A stretch of 30,616 nt of DNA from a virus. Taxonomy: Duplodnaviria > Heunggongvirae > Uroviricota > Caudoviricetes. The notes beneath the pieces are model-generated. The model saw nothing but the letters and a program-made list of their open reading frames with translations. It ran no database searches and was not told where the DNA came from. Position numbers and translations under genes: made by a program. The stretch lies in IMG/VR virus record IMGVR_UViG_2671180357_000001, positions 1 through 30,616 of that record, one strand, 5' to 3'. The stretch's first letter is position 1. Every line of letters begins with the position of its first letter. This document shows positions 25,356 through 30,616 of the stretch, piece after piece.

Positions 25356-26009
25356 ATGAAATGGTATGAACTGGCTAGATCCAGAATGAAAGAACTCGGC
25401 ATAACTCAAGAGAAGTTAGCTGAAGAGCTTGGTATGACGCAGGGTGGAATTGGTCACTGGTTGCGCGGATCTCGTCATCCATCTCTTGACGAGATTGGTG
25501 TGGTGTTTAAATACCTTGGTATTGATAACGTCTCATTCAACCACGACGGTACATTTTCACCTGTTGGCGAATACTCATCTGCCCCCGTTAAAAAACAATA
25601 TGAGTACCCTGTTTTTTCTCATGTTCAGGCCGGGATGTTCTCGCCTGAGCTTAGAACCTTTACCAAAGGTGATGCGGAGAGATGGGTCAGCACAACCAAA
25701 AAAGCCAGTGATTGTGCGTTTTGGCTTGAAGTTGAAGGTAATTCCATGACCGCACCAACAGGATCCAAGCCAAGCTTTCCTGACGGGATGTTAATTCTCG
25801 TTGACCCTGAGCAGGCTGTTGAGCCAGGTGATTTCTGCATAGCCAGACTTGGTGGTGACGAGTTTACCTTCAAGAAACTGATCAGGGATAGCGGTCAGGT
25901 GTTCCTACAACCACTAAACCCGCAATATCCAATGATCCCATGCAATGATAGCTGTTCCGTAGTAGGGAAAGTTATCGCCAGCCAGTGGCCTGAAGAGACA
26001 TTTAGTTAA
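25356..26009 (+). CDS. cI: CI-type prophage repressor (S24 LexA-like autopeptidase); C-terminal domain lambda cI-like, N-terminal HTH domain distinct
   Basis: ORF 25275..26009 trimmed to Met28; residues from [21 protein letters not shown] to the end are near-identical to recalled lambda cI, including the Ala-Gly cleavage site; N-terminal HTH differs. Confidence 0.85.
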
Positions 26010-26041
26010 CAGCCTCACCACTCTAAAACACACAACAATAA

Positions 26042-26069
26042 CCCGACCTTAGCGTCGGGTTTTCTTTTT
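26042..26069 (+). terminator. Rho-independent terminator after cI
   Basis: CCCGAC-CTTAGC-GTCGGG hairpin followed by TTTTCTTTTT. Confidence 0.6.
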
Positions 26070-26088
26070 CCAAAATATAAATCAATAA

Positions 26089-26161
26089 AATACAAAGTGT
26101 TATAAAAAACTAACCACATTTAGAACATTTTGTATTGACTCAATAAAGTACACATCGTACT
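26089..26161. promoter_or_regulatory. oL: three candidate 15-bp operator sites (about 26089-26103, 26122-26136, 26147-26161)
   Basis: AATACAAAGTGTTAT, AGAACATTTTGTATT and AGTACACATCGTACT; the last overlaps the pL spacer and -10 and matches an oR site at 13 of 15 positions. Confidence 0.5.
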
Positions 26162-26163
26162 AT
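26135..26163 (+). promoter_or_regulatory. pL candidate promoter (TTGACT-N17-TACTAT)
   Basis: Good -35/-10 hexamers with 17-bp spacer, upstream of nutL and N. Confidence 0.55.
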
Positions 26164-26209
26164 TTAGCCATCAGCAGGAAGCTGGAAGCCAAACGGAACA
26201 GATTGGCAG

Positions 26210-26243
26210 GCTCTTTAACTTCGATGGGGCGCTGACAAAGCGC
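26210..26243 (+). promoter_or_regulatory. nutL: boxA (GCTCTTTAA) and boxB hairpin (GCGC-TGACAAA-GCGC)
   Basis: boxB matches the recalled P22 nutL boxB; boxA-like element 10 nt upstream; lies between pL and the N start. Confidence 0.65.
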
Positions 26244-26362
26244 AAACAGATACCAAACGAGATGGGTTTGGCGGTGATGTGAATTGCAGCTGCAACGACA
26301 GCAACCAGAAGATCAGCACCTGGCGCATCACCACCAAAGCCATTTCACATGAGGAAAATATC

Positions 26363-26671
26363 ATGACGGTAATCGTGTACGGGAAATCAACATTTGCAGG
26401 AAATGCCAAAACTCGCCGTCATGAGCGGCGCAGAAAGCTGGCTATCGAGCGTGATGCTATATGCAACATCATCGATTCGATCTTCGGCACAGACAGTGAG
26501 GAACCTGTTCAGGAAGCCCCGAGAAAACGTTTAATCCTTTCTGAAAAAGCAATATCACTCGGCAACATTCGTAACCAAAATACCGACGAATGCAGTGGAA
26601 GTATTTGCCTGCCAAACGTAGCTCTTTACGCGGCAGGCTACCGGAAATCAAAACAACTGACGGCGAGGTAA
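26363..26671 (+). CDS. N: Antitermination protein N, P22 gp24-type
   Basis: ORF 26279..26671 trimmed to Met29 (MTVIVYGKSTFAGNAKTRRHERRRKLAIERD...), an arginine-rich motif matching recalled P22 gp24; GAGGAAAA RBS. Confidence 0.75.
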   Translation: MTVIVYGKSTFAGNAKTRRHERRRKLAIERDAICNIIDSIFGTDSEEPVQEAPRKRLILSEKAISLGNIRNQNTDECSGSICLPNVALYAAGYRKSKQLTAR

Positions 26672-26674
26672 GTG

Positions 26675-26899
26675 ATGAATCAGACATACATTCCATCATG
26701 CTTGAGAAATCTGCCAAAGCAGAAAGCAAAGCCCAGCAAGCAAGCCATAAAGGACGCTAAGGCAGAGGTTATTGATCAAGCAATACAATTGCTCAGGGAG
26801 GAGTTAAGAAGTGGCAAGCTCGAAGGAATGATGATGCCCTATCAGCGCGGATATCTATCGGCGATTAGTAAGTTGGAAGTATTGAAGAGTGAATTATGA
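26675..26899 (+). CDS. Hypothetical protein (74 aa), first gene downstream of N
   Basis: ORF track 26672..26899 begins at GTG; ATG at 26675 with GAGG upstream; Lys-rich, predicted helical; no family recognised. Confidence 0.5.
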   Translation: MNQTYIPSCLRNLPKQKAKPSKQAIKDAKAEVIDQAIQLLREELRSGKLEGMMMPYQRGYLSAISKLEVLKSEL

Positions 26900-26961
26900 A
26901 CTATCTGGAATTTCCGGATGGTTCATTATTTTGGCAGCAAACCACTTATTTGAGGTGAGAT

Positions 26962-27048
26962 ATGGAAGAAGAATTTGAAGAGTTCGAAGAGCATCCGCAG
27001 GATGTGATGGAACAATACCAGGACTATCCTTATGACTACGACTATTGA
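26962..27048 (+). CDS. Candidate acidic/aromatic micro-protein (28 aa)
   Basis: MEEEFEEFEEHPQDVMEQYQDYPYDYDY; GAGGTGA immediately upstream; 3' end overlaps the ral start by 17 nt; may be a coupling leader. Confidence 0.3.
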   Translation: MEEEFEEFEEHPQDVMEQYQDYPYDYDY

Positions 27049-27232
27049 TAAAAATCAATGGTGTGGACAATTCAAGCGATGCAATGGATGCAAGCTGCAA
27101 TCGGAATGCATGGTTAAGCCTGAAGAAATGTTTCCTGTAATGGAGGATGGGAAATATGTCGATAAATGGGCAATACGAACGACGGCAATGATTGCCAGAG
27201 AACTTGGTAAACAGAACAACAAGGCTGCCTAA
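27032..27232 (+). CDS. ral: Ral-like restriction alleviation protein
   Basis: 66 aa, MTTTIDKNQWCGQFKRCNGCKLQSECMV... matches recalled lambda Ral; position downstream of N. Confidence 0.7.
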   Translation: MTTTIDKNQWCGQFKRCNGCKLQSECMVKPEEMFPVMEDGKYVDKWAIRTTAMIARELGKQNNKAA

Positions 27233-27368
27233 TGGTGGCCTTTATTTTTGGCATAAACAACAGAATAAACACTGCACTGTGTATTCATTCCAACGAGTGA
27301 ATACACGGAGCAATGTCGCTCGTAACTAAACAGGAGCCGACTTGTTCTGATTATTGGAAATCTTCTTT

Positions 27369-27395
27369 GCCCTCCAGTGTGAGGGCAATTTTTTT
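27369..27395 (+). terminator. Rho-independent terminator just upstream of the EAKR-protein gene
   Basis: GCCCTC-CAGTGT-GAGGGC hairpin followed by AATTTTTTT. Confidence 0.55.
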
Positions 27396-27407
27396 GACGG
27401 AGGATAT

Positions 27408-28376
27408 ATGAGTGAAGTAACAGATTTAGTTGTTATTGAAAAAGCAAATGCAATGACTGTATTTCAGTCTGCCGACCAGATTGAAGAAATCCTTCAAAGG
27501 GTTGAACGTGAAGTTATGTCCTTTGTGCCTGATATCACAACGGCAAAGGGCAGAAAGGAGATCGCTTCTCTGGCGTATAAAGTTGCGCAGACGAAAACAT
27601 ATCTCGATGGTCTTGGCAAAGACCTTGTTGCTGAACTGAAGGAAATTCCAAAGCTAATTGATGCCAACCGCAAGACAGTGCGCGATCGCCTTGATGAACT
27701 GAAAGCCAAGGCACGCCAGCCTCTTACTGATTATGAAGAGGAACAGGCGCGGATTAAAGCCGAAGAAGAAGCTAAGGCAGCAGCTGAAGCTCTCGCAAAG
27801 CAAATTGAGTCTGACCATGAAATAGCGATTTTGATGGATCGCGAATTTGACCGCCAAAGAGAAGAGGCAAGACTCAAAGCGGAGCAGGAAAAGCGAGAGC
27901 ATGAAGAACGCTTAAAAAGAGAAGCTGAAGAGAAAGCCAGAGCAGAAGCCGAAGCAAAGGCAAAAGCCGAAATTGAAGCAGCAGCAAGGCGAGAAGCAGA
28001 AGCTAAGGCCGCAGCGGAACGTGCAGAGCGTGAACGCATTGAAGCCGAGCAACGAGCACAGCGCGAAGCAAAAGAGGCAGCAGAACGAGCTGAAAGAGAA
28101 AAGCAGGCGGCAATTGAAGCAGAACGCCGAAAAGCACAGGAGGAGGCGGAACGAATCCGGCGCGAGGCTGAAGCAAAAGAGCAAGCCAGAATAGCAGAAG
28201 AAAAAAGAATCAAGGACGAAGAAGAGCGCAGAGCAAAGGATAAAGCTCACCGGAAAGAAGTAAATAACAAAATACTTGCTGACCTTATCAAGGTTGGCGC
28301 ATCAGAAGATGTTGCTAAAAATATCATAACAGCCATCGCAAAAGGCGAAGTATTCGCAACAAAAATAACCTACTAA
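27408..28376 (+). CDS. Hypothetical coiled-coil protein with long Glu/Ala/Lys/Arg-rich central repeat region (322 aa)
   Basis: ORF 27354..28376 trimmed to Met19 (GGAGGA RBS); about 110-aa N-terminal region, about 170 aa of EAKAEAEARRE-type low complexity, short C-terminal region. Confidence 0.6.
   Translation: MSEVTDLVVIEKANAMTVFQSADQIEEILQRVEREVMSFVPDITTAKGRKEIASLAYKVAQTKTYLDGLGKDLVAELKEIPKLIDANRKTVRDRLDELKAKARQPLTDYEEEQARIKAEEEAKAAAEALAKQIESDHEIAILMDREFDRQREEARLKAEQEKREHEERLKREAEEKARAEAEAKAKAEIEAAARREAEAKAAAERAERERIEAEQRAQREAKEAAERAEREKQAAIEAERRKAQEEAERIRREAEAKEQARIAEEKRIKDEEERRAKDKAHRKEVNNKILADLIKVGASEDVAKNIITAIAKGEVFATKITY
27760..28280. repeat. Low-complexity GAA/GCA/AAA/CGN-rich coding repeat encoding the EAKR tract
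   Basis: Imperfect short repeats visible in the nucleotide sequence; they generate spurious antisense ORFs 27731..28213 and 27912..28250. Confidence 0.6.
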
Positions 28377-28400
28377 TAAAACCAACATAAGGAACCACCC

Positions 28401-28532
28401 ATGATTTACGCAATCGCGGGAGGCGCTCGCATGGGTGCCTTCCAACTAAATGAATCTTTACTTGAACGAATCACCCGTAAATTACGTGACGGATGGAAAA
28501 GAGCTGAGGTCTTATTATGCGCAATGAAATAG
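28401..28532 (+). CDS. cIII: CIII-like protein (FtsH-inhibitor family)
   Basis: 43-aa ORF absent from the track: MIYAIAGGARMGAFQLNESLLERITRKLRDGWKR..., central helix matches recalled lambda CIII; AAGGAA RBS. Confidence 0.7.
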   Translation: MIYAIAGGARMGAFQLNESLLERITRKLRDGWKRAEVLLCAMK

Positions 28533-28669
28533 CCATCAATCACCAGATGCTTCGTGCTGCACAGAACAAAGCAGTAATAGCCAGATTTATTGGTGATTCA
28601 AAAATGTGGCTTGAAGCAAATAAAGCGATGAAATCAGCTATCAACATTCCGTGGTATCGCAGGAAATGA
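28517..28669 (+). CDS. kil: Kil-like protein (candidate host cell-division inhibitor)
   Basis: 50-aa ORF overlapping the cIII end: MRNEIAINHQMLRAAQNKAVIARFIGDSKMW... resembles recalled lambda Kil. Confidence 0.6.
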   Translation: MRNEIAINHQMLRAAQNKAVIARFIGDSKMWLEANKAMKSAINIPWYRRK

Positions 28670-28824
28670 GTTTTACAGATAGCTGGTCAGACGAAGAATT
28701 CATTCGTCAGATGAAAGAATTAATCGGTAACGAAGGAGATATTCATGTCACTTGCAACCACAGTGAAGGAGAGCAAGTTACAGAGACGCATGTACACGCA
28801 GAAAGCTCTCTGGTATCGCCATAA
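28666..28824 (+). CDS. Small acidic hypothetical protein (52 aa)
   Basis: ATGA overlap with the kil stop; MSFTDSWSDEEFIRQMKELIGNEGDIHVTCNHSEGEQ...; overlaps the next ORF, so one of the two may be spurious. Confidence 0.3.
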   Translation: MSFTDSWSDEEFIRQMKELIGNEGDIHVTCNHSEGEQVTETHVHAESSLVSP

Positions 28825-28915
28825 TGGCGACCGCGAAGGAATGCGGGTATGCCTTAATTTGTCACGAGTCGAAGTATTAAATCAGCGTTATTTCCTTGGG
28901 CTATGTCCATTCTGA
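28745..28915 (+). CDS. Small basic hypothetical protein (56 aa) immediately upstream of the recombinase
   Basis: AAGGAG 6 nt before the ATG; MSLATTVKESKLQRRMYTQKALWYRHNGDREGMRVCLNLSRVEVLNQRYFLGLCPF. Confidence 0.4.
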   Translation: MSLATTVKESKLQRRMYTQKALWYRHNGDREGMRVCLNLSRVEVLNQRYFLGLCPF

Positions 28916-28923
28916 GGTGAATT

Positions 28924-29631
28924 ATGGATTTGAACAAATTCGATGAGCCATTCAGCCCTGAAGATATCGAATGGCGAATACAGCAAAGCGGTAAAACACG
29001 CGATGGCAAGGTGTGGGCTATGGTGCTGGCTTATGTCACGAACAGGGCAATCATGAAACGCCTGGACGATGTTTGCGGCAAAGCAGGATGGCGCAATGAA
29101 TACCGCGATATTCCCAACAACGGAGGCGTTGAATGCGGCATATCAATCAGGATTGATTCCGAATGGGTAACCAAATGGGATGCTGCTGAAAACACGCAGG
29201 TAGAAGCCGTAAAAGGTGGTCGTTCCGGTGCAATGAAGCGCGCTGCCGTTCAGTGGGGAATCGGTCGGTATCTGTATAACCTTGAGGAAGGTTTCGCACA
29301 AACATCTCTCGACAAAAAGCAGGGATGGCACAGGGCAAAACTCAAGGATGGAACAGGATTTTACTGGCTCCCTCCATCGCTGCCGGGCTGGGCAATCCCA
29401 GCATCAGATAACAAACCATCACCAGAAAATACCAACCAGAAATCTCCATCGGTTGACTGCGAACAAATCCTGAAAGACTTCAGCGATTATGCGTCAACAG
29501 AAACTGATAAGAAAAAACTCATCGAGCGTTATCAGCGTGACTGGCAATTAATGGCTGGCAACGAGGAGGCGCAGGCTAAATGCGTTCAGGTAATGAACAT
29601 CAGAGTTAACGAACTAAAACAGGCGGCATAA
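28924..29631 (+). CDS. Single-strand annealing recombinase, Rad52/Sak-type core with Erf-like C-terminal tail
   Basis: Rad52-family signature (KRAAVQWGIGRYLYNLEE); C-terminal about 60 aa (TETDKKKLIERYQRDWQL...KCVQVMNIRVNELKQAA) resembles the recalled P22 Erf C-terminus. Confidence 0.8.
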   Translation: MDLNKFDEPFSPEDIEWRIQQSGKTRDGKVWAMVLAYVTNRAIMKRLDDVCGKAGWRNEYRDIPNNGGVECGISIRIDSEWVTKWDAAENTQVEAVKGGRSGAMKRAAVQWGIGRYLYNLEEGFAQTSLDKKQGWHRAKLKDGTGFYWLPPSLPGWAIPASDNKPSPENTNQKSPSVDCEQILKDFSDYASTETDKKKLIERYQRDWQLMAGNEEAQAKCVQVMNIRVNELKQAA

Positions 29632-30147
29632 ATGGCAAGCAGAGGCGTAAATAAGGTGATCATTATTGGTCGCCTTGGGCATGATCCAGAAATCAGATAT
29701 TCACCATCAGGAACGGCATTTGCAAACCTTACAGTTGCTACGTCAGAGCAATGGCGTGATAAGCAAACTGGAGAGCAAAAGGAGCAGACGGAGTGGCACC
29801 GCGTGGTAATGAGCGGGAAACTGGCAGAAATTGCCAGCGAATATCTGCGAAAAGGCTCTGAGGTTTATCTTGAAGGCAAATTGCGGACAAGAAAATGGCA
29901 GGATCAAAGCGGACAGGATCGGTTCACTACCGAAGTTATCGTAGGAGTTGGTGGAACCATGCAAATGCTTGGTGGCAAGCAAGGAGGCAATGAACAGTCT
30001 TCACCTCAGCGAAATAACGGTAAGCAACAAAAACAGCAATCTCAGCAGCAGGGGAATCACAGCGAACCACCTATGGATTTTGACGACGATATACCCTTTG
30101 CACCAGTAACTCTCCCCTTCCCTCGTCACGCTATTCACGCAATTTAA
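29632..30147 (+). CDS. ssb: Single-stranded DNA-binding protein
   Basis: OB-fold N-terminus ([23 protein letters not shown]...), Gly/Gln-rich linker and acidic C-terminal tail DFDDDIPF; start overlaps the recombinase stop. Confidence 0.9.
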
Positions 30148-30160
30148 TCAGGAGAAAATC

Positions 30161-30457
30161 ATGCCAGCGCCTCTGTATGGTGCGGATGACGCGCGCCGCT
30201 GTTCCGGCAATTCCGTATCGGAGGTGCTGGATAAATTCAGGAAAAACTACGACCGGATAATGTCTCTACCGCAGGAAACGAAAGAGGAAAAGGAATTTCG
30301 CCATTGTATATGGCTTGCAGAGAAAGAAGAACGCGAGCGAATTTACCAGACATCAATCCGACCATTCCGCAAAGCCACATATACCCACTTCCCTGAATAT
30401 ATCGACCCGCGCCTGCGTAATTACCGCTCACGCTATGGCGCTATCAGTAATGACTGA
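30161..30457 (+). CDS. Hypothetical protein (98 aa)
   Basis: ORF with GGAGAAAA RBS directly after ssb; no family recognised. Confidence 0.5.
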
Positions 30458-30467
30458 GGAATTTACC

Positions 30468-30616
30468 ATGAGAGGACTTGCATACAATCCCGGCATTCTT
30501 CCGGCAGAAATGATTATTCGCCAACGCGTAAAGCCAATGCCATCGAGAGAGGAATTGCTTAAGAGAAATAGTTTCGGTTCTGTTAATGACAACAAATATC
30601 TGAATGCGATGTGGCG
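30468..30616 (+). CDS. Hypothetical protein, 5' part only (runs off window end)
   Basis: ATG at 30468 with GAGGAA upstream; [39 protein letters not shown]..., open to the window edge. Confidence 0.4.

Follow-up and report, generated by a model that had tools for sequence, protein, structure and literature searches.

The four small ORFs packed on the plus strand at positions 28401-28915 of the window (the whole 30,616-nt stretch of viral DNA that was analyzed) are best read as the cIII - kil - arf-like - hkaM-like part of the leftward early (pL) operon of an Sf6/HK97-type lambdoid prophage, an explanation that, taken together with the reading of ORF3 and ORF4 developed below, we consider likely as a whole. 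An earlier note on this DNA had described the four ORFs, and its coordinates were all confirmed. Their stretch is 98.6% identical in DNA sequence to Shigella phage Sf6, in which ORF1 to ORF4 are annotated as genes 32, 31, 30 and 29 (AF547987; Table 1). When 701 nt spanning the four ORFs (window positions 28300-29000) were used as a query for their spread, 355 phage records and 2180 of the 5426 complete E. coli genomes (~40%) matched part or all of it. A first viral scan returned 80 near-identical loci, and divergent queries were used instead; a scan of genome contigs gave only seven loci.

Table 1. Coordinates of the four small ORFs, of elements within them, and of the recombination genes that follow in the window.
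Feature	Position	Strand	Description
cIII (ORF1)	28401..28532	+	43 aa, pI 10.0; Sf6 gene 32
kil (ORF2)	28517..28669	+	50 aa; Sf6 gene 31
ORF3	28666..28824	+	52 aa, pI 4.4, net charge -9; Sf6 gene 30, HK97/HK022 gp42.1
ORF3 conserved core	28666..28731	+	Residues 1-22, MSFTDSWSDEEFIRQMKELIGN; homologous to the P22 Arf N-terminus
ORF4 Shine-Dalgarno AAGGAG	28733..28738	+	6 nt before the ATG; within ORF3 codons 23-25 (E-G-D)
ORF4	28745..28915	+	56 aa, pI 10.0, net charge +5.6; Sf6 gene 29, HK97/HK022 gp42
ORF3/ORF4 overlap	28745..28824	+	80 nt; ORF4 codons 1-27 and ORF3 residues 27-52
ORF4/recombinase junction	28913..28926	+	TGAGGTGAATTATG; ORF4 stop overlaps the recombinase ribosome-binding site
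Rad52/Rad22-family single-strand annealing protein	28924..29631	+	Pfam Rad52_Rad22, E 7e-26; Sf6 gene 28
Phage SSB	29632..30147	+	Pfam SSB, E 2e-38
Abc2, anti-RecBCD protein	30161..30457	+	Pfam Anti-RecBCD_p2, E 4e-61

The arrangement is more than chance, as seen from its spread and from frame-specific purifying selection on both ORF3 and ORF4, and, as judged from sequence, all four ORFs encode proteins. There is nothing out of the ordinary in the region, which has been catalogued before. ORF3 and ORF4, which the earlier note had listed as unknown, carry annotations in Sf6 (genes 30 and 29) and in HK97 and HK022 (42.1 and 42), and ORF4 alone is also annotated in HK620 (hkaM).

The first two ORFs had been called CIII-like and Kil-like, and both calls were borne out by scores above the Pfam cut-offs. 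ORF1 matched Lambda_CIII (PF02061) with 54.7 bits (cut-off 25.7, E 1e-14), its residues 2-34 aligning to profile positions 1-31 and covering the conserved central amphipathic region, and it fell within phrog_550 (E 1e-19); cIII is also annotated in Sf6 and in RefSeq. By homology, ORF1 would be an FtsH-inhibitory lysogeny factor that stabilizes CII. ORF2 matched Lambda_Kil (PF06301; 72.6 bits, cut-off 27.6, E 1.7e-20) and phrog_2055 (E 3e-35), Kil being an inhibitor of host cell division. The 16-nt overlap between kil and cIII is identical in HK97, HK022 and Sf6.

ORF3 begins at an ATG that overlaps the kil stop codon (ATGA), so that its start is coupled to the kil stop, and it belongs to phrog_2123 (E 1e-40); it is annotated in Sf6, in RefSeq and in HK97/HK022. 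Its only conserved part, at the level of aligned sequences, is the first 20-26 residues, and the first 22 of these are homologous to the N-terminus of P22 Arf (47 aa, phrog_2445), with which they share the motif W/F-S/N-D-E/D-E-F-I. Alignment of the ORF3 family with Arf by hhalign gave 94.3% and E 1e-7 over columns 1-22, and the phrog_2445 HMM matched six ORF3-family sequences in a constant register (E 0.00085-0.06), the ORF3 of the window by itself reaching only E 0.05 against this profile. The two families are bridged by the Arf protein of Klebsiella phage RCIP0034, which is 48% identical to ORF3 over 21 aa (BLASTP, E 2e-6) and 50% identical to P22 Arf (E 1e-12). Both ORF3 and P22 Arf are small and acidic, and both are encoded directly after kil and ahead of the annealing-protein gene; the comparison with P22 Arf drawn in the earlier note was apt for this ORF. 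Unlike Arf, ORF3 lacks the conserved C-terminal half of the P22 protein (AERQNPIIGWDEFAG) and has an unconstrained tail that overlaps ORF4. This half (NL-AERQNP-I-WDEFAG) was absent from ORF3 and from all of its relatives, the alignments ending at column 22-25. In HK140, the ORF3 core occurs alone, without ORF4, in an unannotated 35-aa ORF with a different short tail.

ORF4 is 98% identical to Sf6 gp29, lies within phrog_1723 (E 1e-34, residues 1-56) and belongs to the same family as HkaM of HK620 (hhalign 99.6%, E 2e-23; BLASTP 32%, E 7e-10). Its frame is intact down to ~30% identity in Escherichia, Salmonella, Enterobacter, Citrobacter, Serratia, Yersinia, Pantoea and Erwinia, and in an HMM search of 1.8 billion representatives the family grew only among small enterobacterial-type proteins. 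A few weaker matches in this search (E 3e-7 to 8e-4) fell in longer proteins of 149-383 aa. The strong ribosome-binding site noted earlier for ORF4 was found as an AAGGAG element (Table 1), and GAAGGAG is kept in aligned Sf6, HK97 and Enterobacter-phage sequences; it is missing in Erwinia phage 59, which has no overlap between the two ORFs. The predicted structure (AF2, mean pLDDT 90.9) contains helices at residues 7-26 and 30-49, and ORF4 is thus predicted to form a helical hairpin followed by a flexible C-terminal tail that always ends in Pro-Phe. In an alignment of 51 ORF4 sequences, no variation is seen at S10, A21, R25, E43, N46, P55 or F56, and the full-length distant members retrieved all end in PF, following the pattern ...F-L-x(2-6)-P-F-COOH. 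Pfam and NCBIfam searches gave no match for ORF3 or ORF4; a search of PDB sequences with the 51-sequence ORF4 profile gave nothing better than E 2, and Foldseek comparison of the ORF4 model with PDB and BFVD returned only generic helical hairpins, with E of at least 0.2.

The same four ORFs occur with the same order and overlaps in Sf6, HK97 and HK022, where in the latter two phages they are named cIII, kil, 42.1 and 42. In Sf6, they are followed by recombinase, SSB and Abc2, as in the window, which lacks the HNH endonuclease gene (gene 26) that Sf6 has between ssb and abc2. In HK97 and HK022, the block is paired with Erf, whereas in the window it is paired with a Rad52-like protein, and in HK97 a frameshift, unlike in the window, fuses 42.1 to 42. 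P22 has the order kil, arf, erf, with arf abutting erf and no HkaM-type gene, in contrast to kil, ORF3, ORF4 and the Rad52-like gene of the window. HK620 HkaM (NP_112046), which was first labelled 'arf' by position, directly follows kil without an ORF3. Its gene immediately precedes sak4, which encodes the annealing protein, and the pairing is with Sak4 and an SSB of the DUF669 type. HkaM shares the C-terminal Pro-Phe of ORF4 but differs in length and tail (62 aa ending ...SELPF, compared with 56 aa ending ...GLCPF).

The position of ORF4 with respect to the recombination genes is nearly constant in the loci sampled. Wherever a downstream ORF could be scored (184 loci of the sample), the next gene after ORF4 encoded a Rad52-like, Erf or AAA_24/Sak4 annealing protein, and among three very divergent ORF4 members an annealing-protein gene came next in two, the contig of the third having ended before the next gene. 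In 75 distinct junctions, CCN TTC TGA/TAA is followed by GG or AAGG, with an ATG 5-12 nt on and five recombinase types downstream, and Megablast identity in many phages stops at query position 617, which is window position 28916. From these alignments, the ORF4/recombinase junction is a point of module exchange between phages. ORF4 is also always beside the cIII/kil block, and adjacency alone fits a role in recombination or another early role in host takeover equally well.

P22 Arf promotes recombination without being required for it, by a mechanism that is not known (PMC12315714, PMC9836394); stimulation of Erf-dependent recombination has been reported for it, as cited in PMC12315714. By analogy with P22 Arf, we infer that ORF3 and ORF4 would be non-essential accessory factors of phage recombination based on an annealing protein, probably acting by protein-protein contacts, ORF3 through an acidic amphipathic N-terminal helix and ORF4 through its hairpin and Pro-Phe tail. 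Against this reading, ORF4 alleles recombine freely with different types of annealing protein, and the homology of ORF3 to Arf extends over 22 residues only. HkaM has been described as an orphan of unknown function, and because sak4 and ssb of HK620 alone supported oligonucleotide recombineering equal to that of the whole module including hkaM, HkaM is not needed for this process (PMC5928155).

This last result also speaks for the proposal that ORF3, ORF4 or both are unrecognised inhibitors of a host nuclease or of anti-phage defence, of the Gam, Abc or Ral type, and not recombination cofactors. The ORFs lie in the pL operon among host-takeover genes such as ral, kil, cIII and abc2, in the same general region as lambda Gam and P22 Abc2 and, like these, encode small early proteins; furthermore, ORF3 combines a small size with strong acidity, and possible DNA mimicry has been proposed for Arf (PMC9836394). 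However, neither ORF matched any known inhibitor family in Pfam, NCBIfam, PHROGs or PDB sequences, and the fold searches with ORF4 were likewise negative. In particular, no similarity to Gam or to Anti-RecBCD_p2 was found for either ORF in Pfam, NCBIfam or PDB sequences, or for ORF4 in the fold searches. Thus, of the comparisons with Gam, Abc and Arf proposed in the earlier note, that with the Arf N-terminus succeeded for ORF3, while those with Gam and Abc2 failed for both ORFs, and the host-nuclease inhibitor that the note had suspected here found no counterpart in any nuclease inhibitor, abc2 being a separate gene further along (Table 1). Against the proposal, moreover, the module already encodes Abc2, ORF4 is not a DNA mimic because it is basic, and ORF4 is almost always directly upstream of an annealing-protein gene, to which it is apparently translationally coupled. 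We therefore regard an inhibitory function as unlikely.

A more specific proposal is that the HkaM-family ORF4 is a mimic of, or an adaptor for, the C-terminal tip of SSB, with the Arf-like ORF3 as another small protein modulating that step, which we offer as a speculation with a rather low chance of being correct. The tip of bacterial SSB is DDDIPF, and ORF4-family tails end in ...x-P-F-COOH, often as E/D-x-P-F and in some cases as -IPF. In the window, the phage SSB has a DDDIPF tip followed by a 15-aa extension, as seen when C-termini were compared. The tip of the HK620 SSB, NDYPPF, was likened to the ORF4-family tail. Under this proposal, the ORF4 tail would dock in an SSB-tail pocket, either that of the phage annealing protein or that of an SSB-interacting host enzyme such as ExoI, RecJ, RecQ or PriA, and docking would steer SSB-coated single-stranded DNA toward phage recombination. 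If true, ORF3 and ORF4 would represent recombination modulators of very small size, a new class that is widespread in enterobacterial prophages.

ORF3 and ORF4 overlap in two frames, as the earlier note had pointed out, the ORF4 frame being +1 relative to ORF3. Estimates of dN/dS, pooled across non-independent pairs, were 0.38 in the ORF3 frame and 1.1-1.2 in the other two frames for ORF3 codons 1-26, 0.23 in the ORF4 frame as against 1.8 in the ORF3 frame for the 80-nt overlap, and 0.08 for the segment that belongs to ORF4 only. In agreement with these values, ORF4 codons in the overlap show about twice the variability at their third positions that they show at the first and second. Because each ORF is found alone in some contexts (of 149 distinct contexts with ORF4, 48 have no ORF3) and the ORF3 stop is variable, it was concluded that the overlap is unconstrained read-on and not dual coding. 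The dual-frame overlap, which had been described as unusual, is no special coding device: only the ORF4 frame is constrained, while the ORF3 tail is free and its ends vary. The tail carries no detectable sequence constraint, although selection may act on its length or net charge. ORF3 carries no stop ahead of the ORF4 ribosome-binding site and ATG, and therefore ribosomes would continue into ORF4, reading in its -1 frame to a chance stop and producing a variable ORF3 tail, while ORF4 would initiate independently at its own strong Shine-Dalgarno sequence. The overlap would have no function of its own and would have arisen incidentally as modules were shuffled at the ORF4 ribosome-binding site.

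True dual coding, in which both frames of the overlap are functional and the ORF3 tail is needed for activity, would account for the finding that an ORF3-like gene adjoining ORF4 always runs into it, its stop lying 59-159 nt past the ORF4 ATG (101 of 101 distinct contexts), and for the mostly net acidic character of tails that are unrelated in sequence, a property judged by eye and computed only for the tail in the window (about -4). It is nevertheless very improbable given the dN/dS values in the overlap, the variation of tail sequences and stop positions among lineages, and the different short tail that follows the HK140 core where there is no ORF4. Moreover, an open ORF3 frame is about what would be expected by chance, because each sequence has only some two codon junctions prone to stops where this frame crosses the ORF4 start, and examination of these junctions gave no sign of selection keeping the ORF3 frame open over ORF4. 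The purine-rich Lys, Arg and Glu codons of ORF4 automatically yield a Glu/Gly-rich sequence in the other frame.

The possibility that just one member of the pair is genuine and its partner a spurious call has scarcely any credibility; automatic annotation often retains one of the two (in E. coli STEFF_1, RefSeq lists ORF3 and omits ORF4) and just one is annotated in several phage records, but each ORF has a segment under purifying selection in its own frame, has diverged homologues, and is found alone with its frame intact in other phages. A functional product made by programmed ribosomal frameshifting from the ORF3 N-terminus into ORF4, with the 82-83-aa fusions of HK97 (gp42.1) and certain E. 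coli prophages as its hard-wired forms, is extremely unlikely. In HK97, two 1-nt insertions join residues 1-46 of ORF3 to residues about 20-56 of ORF4, and protein-database entries include several 82-aa fusions with different junctions, of which one is found on 36 contigs; such fusions remove most of ORF4 helix 1, and their junctions are scattered, as from random indels or sequencing errors, most of them being on single low-coverage contigs. No frameshift-type heptamer or stimulatory structure was seen, Rfam gave no match, and the predicted RNA fold around the ORF4 start was not unusual (z-score -1.2). A programmed frameshift gene pair was rejected on the grounds that ORF4 is provided with a strong Shine-Dalgarno sequence and an ATG of its own, stands alone in the contexts mentioned above, and is accompanied by no slippery or stimulatory element.

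The reading of ORF3 and ORF4 as two genes with a fortuitous overlap makes the pair a clean case of overlap resolution gone wrong in annotation: in some genomes RefSeq retains ORF3 at the expense of the better-conserved ORF4, and PHROGs labels both families 'recombinase' without any basis. The presence of the Arf N-terminus in ORF3 and the HkaM membership and invariant Pro-Phe tail of ORF4 make these genes easier to study, as does the existence of single-base changes that disable one frame and are silent in the other, although none of these features is surprising in itself. By computation, T28746C abolishes the ORF4 start and leaves the ORF3 protein unchanged, whereas G28765T (at ORF3 codon 34) and C28774T each create a stop in the ORF3 tail and leave the ORF4 protein unchanged. 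To our knowledge, the accessory factors Arf and Abc1 have gone for more than 30 years without a known mechanism. In prophages of E. coli, Shigella and Salmonella, few uncharacterised genes are as common as ORF3 and ORF4, and the two are placed at the entrance to the recombination module.

The + strand of the window carries, at positions 26000-30616, the leftward early (pL) operon of a lambdoid, P22/Sf6-like prophage, and the four small ORFs that the earlier note had described upstream of the recombinase lie exactly where it placed them. Its CIII-like and Kil-like calls hold, as ORF1 and ORF2 exceed the corresponding Pfam cut-offs. The stop codon of ORF2 and the ATG of ORF3 overlap (ATGA), AAGGAG lies 6 nt 5' of the ORF4 ATG, and ORF4 is in the +1 frame relative to ORF3, with 80 nt common to both. 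Pfam and NCBIfam hold no family for ORF3 or ORF4, and the label 'recombinase' that PHROGs attaches to both of their families is unsupported; RefSeq phage records propagate it. The 322-aa protein is named 'cell envelope biogenesis protein TolA' in RefSeq, yet its TolA score is only 9.6 bits (cut-off 59); a homologue lies upstream of kil and arf in Klebsiella phage RCIP0034.

Features of the early operon and their counterparts in Shigella phage Sf6 (AF547987)
Feature	Window position	Strand	Properties	Sf6 gene and annotation
322-aa protein	27408-28376		Rich in Glu, Ala, Lys, Arg; probably coiled-coil; no Pfam domain	33
ORF1	28401-28532	+	43 aa; Pfam Lambda_CIII 54.7 bits, above cut-off	32, 'similar to lambda cIII'
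ORF2	28517-28669	+	50 aa; Pfam Lambda_Kil 72.6 bits, above cut-off	31, 'similar to lambda kil'
ORF3	28666-28824	+	52 aa; pI 4.4; net charge -9; phrog_2123 E 1e-40	30, 'similar to HK97 gene 42.1'
ORF4	28745-28915	+	56 aa; pI 10.0; net charge +5.6; phrog_1723 E 1e-34	29, 'similar to HK97 gene 42'
Rad52/Rad22-family annealing protein	28924-29631		Downstream of ORF4; Pfam E 7e-26	
SSB	29632-30147		Downstream of the annealing-protein gene	
Abc2	30161-30457		P22-type anti-RecBCD protein; downstream of SSB; E 4e-61	

When a 701-nt query spanning the four ORFs (window 28300-29000) was searched, matches came from 355 phage records and from 2180 of 5426 complete E. coli genomes; Sf6 and phage IME10 show 98.6% identity along the full query. 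For a lambdoid phage this is an ordinary feature that has been catalogued before, and ORF3 and ORF4 are not unrecognised: both are annotated in Sf6 and, as 42.1 and 42, in HK97 and HK022. Annotation is uneven elsewhere: in E. coli STEFF_1 RefSeq (locus L003, 1867-2116), PGAP calls ORF3 and omits the better conserved ORF4. An Sf6-type enterobacterial ORF3/ORF4 region on a 3.9-kb contig (JAFADF010000066.1, locus L093) from a MAG labelled 'Actinomycetes bacterium' is probably bin contamination.

Related loci were taken from phage records, IMG/VR and GTDB genomes, yielding 149 distinct ORF4-family contexts. Across Escherichia, Salmonella, Enterobacter, Citrobacter, Serratia, Yersinia, Pantoea and Erwinia, with divergence down to ~30% identity, the ORF4 reading frame is intact except in a few truncated or frameshifted copies, and its third codon positions are ~2x as variable as the first and second, inside and outside the overlap alike. 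Frame-resolved dN/dS (Nei-Gojobori, pooled over 18 representatives with both ORFs) indicates that ORF3 and ORF4 are both real genes: values were 0.38 for the ORF3 frame of the ORF3-only segment (codons 1-26), against 1.1 and 1.2 for the other two frames, and 0.08 for the ORF4 frame of the ORF4-only segment. The earlier note had called the two-frame overlap unusual; within these 80 nt purifying selection acts on ORF4 only (0.23 in the ORF4 frame vs 1.8 in the ORF3 frame). Judged from the sequence, the four small genes are evidently translated, ORF4 by independent initiation, and the ORF3 tail appears unconstrained.

ORF3 and ORF4 are separable genes. The ORF4-family gene occurs without ORF3 in 48 of the 149 contexts, in some of which kil adjoins ORF4 through an ATGA overlap, while HK140 (L010 1501-1608) carries the ORF3 core without ORF4, as an unannotated 35-aa Arf-like ORF (MSFTDNWSDEEFIRQMNKMLNQHKEQEKDDDSDSE) between an annotated 56-aa gene and a 103-aa gene that is followed by recT. 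Where ORF3 stands beside ORF4, no stop of its own ever precedes the ORF4 start; the ORF3 frame closes 59-159 nt inside ORF4, at positions that differ by lineage and with unrelated tail sequences. Because the ORF4 Shine-Dalgarno sequence lies within ORF3 codons 23-25, true protein-level constraint on ORF3 covers approximately residues 1-20. ORF4-synonymous changes could create an ORF3-frame stop at only ~2 codon junctions per sequence, so the open ORF3 frame needs no selective explanation, and the RNA around the overlap matched no RNA family and had no unusual structure. The overlap is best read as unconstrained read-on of ORF3 into ORF4, probably a result of module exchange at the ORF4 ribosome-binding site.

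Frameshifted fusions of the two genes also occur. In HK97 (L006 1405-1656), two 1-nt insertions have produced the 83-aa gp42.1, in which residues 1-46 of ORF3 are followed by the C-terminal two-thirds of ORF4, and the protein database holds several 82-aa fusions with differing junctions, one of them (P0022) on 36 contigs. Programmed frameshifting was rejected, as the junctions are scattered, most fusions are on single contigs and most of ORF4 helix 1 is removed. The fusions of 82-83 aa, natural or artefactual (database proteins P0001, P0005, P0022, P0023, P0027 and P0029), are interpreted as indels or sequencing errors affecting dispensable genes.

In P22, the place of ORF3 is taken by Arf (47 aa, MQHEFSDEEFIALIS...), which lies between kil and erf. 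ORF3-family sequences match the Arf profile phrog_2445 in constant register (E 0.00085 to 0.06), and a profile-profile comparison with Arf gave 94.3% probability (E 1e-7, columns 1-22). An Arf from a Klebsiella phage (MSAAEKWNDDEFIQLMSDAIG...) shares 50% identity with P22 Arf (E 1e-12) and, across the first 21 residues, 48% with ORF3 (E 2e-6). The comparison with P22 Arf in the earlier note is thereby borne out for the slot and the N-terminus. Because ORF3 lacks the conserved C-terminal half of P22 Arf, it is termed Arf-like, with a common N-terminal module, and not an Arf orthologue. P22 Arf helps recombination and is non-essential, its mechanism being unknown (PMC12315714); its acidity led to the suggestion that it is possibly a DNA mimic (PMC9836394).

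The ORF4 family clearly includes HkaM of phage HK620 (hhalign 99.6%, E 2e-23). HkaM was first called 'arf' by position alone and later described as an orphan, of unknown function and not homologous to P22 Arf; HK620 sak4 and ssb alone gave as much oligonucleotide recombineering as the entire module with hkaM (PMC5928155). A confident AlphaFold2 model of ORF4 (51-sequence alignment, mean pLDDT 90.9) predicts a pair of antiparallel helices (residues 7-26 and 30-49) with a tail of lower confidence; fold and sequence searches with ORF4 returned nothing informative. Seven residues are invariant (S10, A21, R25, E43, N46, P55 and F56), and Pro-Phe forms the C-terminus of all full-length members retrieved.

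Wherever the downstream ORF could be scored (184 sampled loci), the gene after ORF4 encodes a single-strand annealing protein: Rad52-like in 107, Erf in 50, a second Erf type in 12, AAA_24/Sak4 in 11 and a second AAA_24 type in 4. Two of three very divergent ORF4 members looked up share this neighbourhood; the third contig ends just past the gene. At the end of ORF4, the stop codon overlaps the ribosome-binding site from which the annealing-protein gene would be translated (TTC TGA GGTG...ATG), and recombinase modules are swapped at this junction. Among 75 distinct junctions, 74 have TTC as the final (Phe) codon of ORF4 and the Pro codon before it varies (window 28910-28926), which suggests nucleotide-level constraint or a conserved recombination boundary.

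Several features of the neighbouring proteins were also observed. A C-terminal domain of ~55 aa (window 29400-29631; loci L006, L096, L099, L117, L192), with the pattern ..L..F...A......L..A....W..L.G.....KA..VY..R..EL, is common to annealing proteins with Rad52-like, two Erf-type and one AAA_24/Sak4-type cores, and led single-linkage clustering to place 180 of the 184 downstream proteins in one group. The window SSB (compare L001 3833-4795) reads ...DFDDDIPF followed by 15 extra residues, leaving the normally C-terminal tip internal; the Sf6 SSB ends cleanly in ...DDSDIPF. The extra residues are identical to the C-terminus of the Sf6 gene 26 HNH endonuclease and recur on the SSB of an E. coli prophage; the extension looks like a footprint of HNH gene gain or loss between ssb and abc2. 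The protein after Erf in HK97 and HK022 (gene 40) and in an Stx2a phage (L191 2587-2970), annotated 'likely analog of P22 Abc1', ends in ...NPEYDDSIPF, an SSB-type tip that suggests an SSB-like protein.

The observation in the earlier note stands, and its interpretation is partly right: the alternative it raised, that ORF3 or ORF4 is a nuclease or defence inhibitor, is a less likely possibility for which no positive support was found. Annealing proteins need the SSB C-terminal tip (PMC5928155), which the ORF4 tail resembles (DDDIPF in the host, NDYPPF in HK620 SSB), with only 2-4 residues alike. Speculatively, ORF4 could occupy SSB-tail pockets; the invariant TTC codon may in part reflect nucleotide-level constraint. 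To the existing annotation are added the frame-resolved selection analysis, mutations that disrupt one frame and are silent in the other, the link of ORF3 to the Arf N-terminus and the assignment of ORF4, with its Pro-Phe tail, to the HkaM family. By analogy with Arf in P22, ORF3 and ORF4 are probably dispensable accessory factors of annealing-protein-dependent recombination, which would act via protein contacts.
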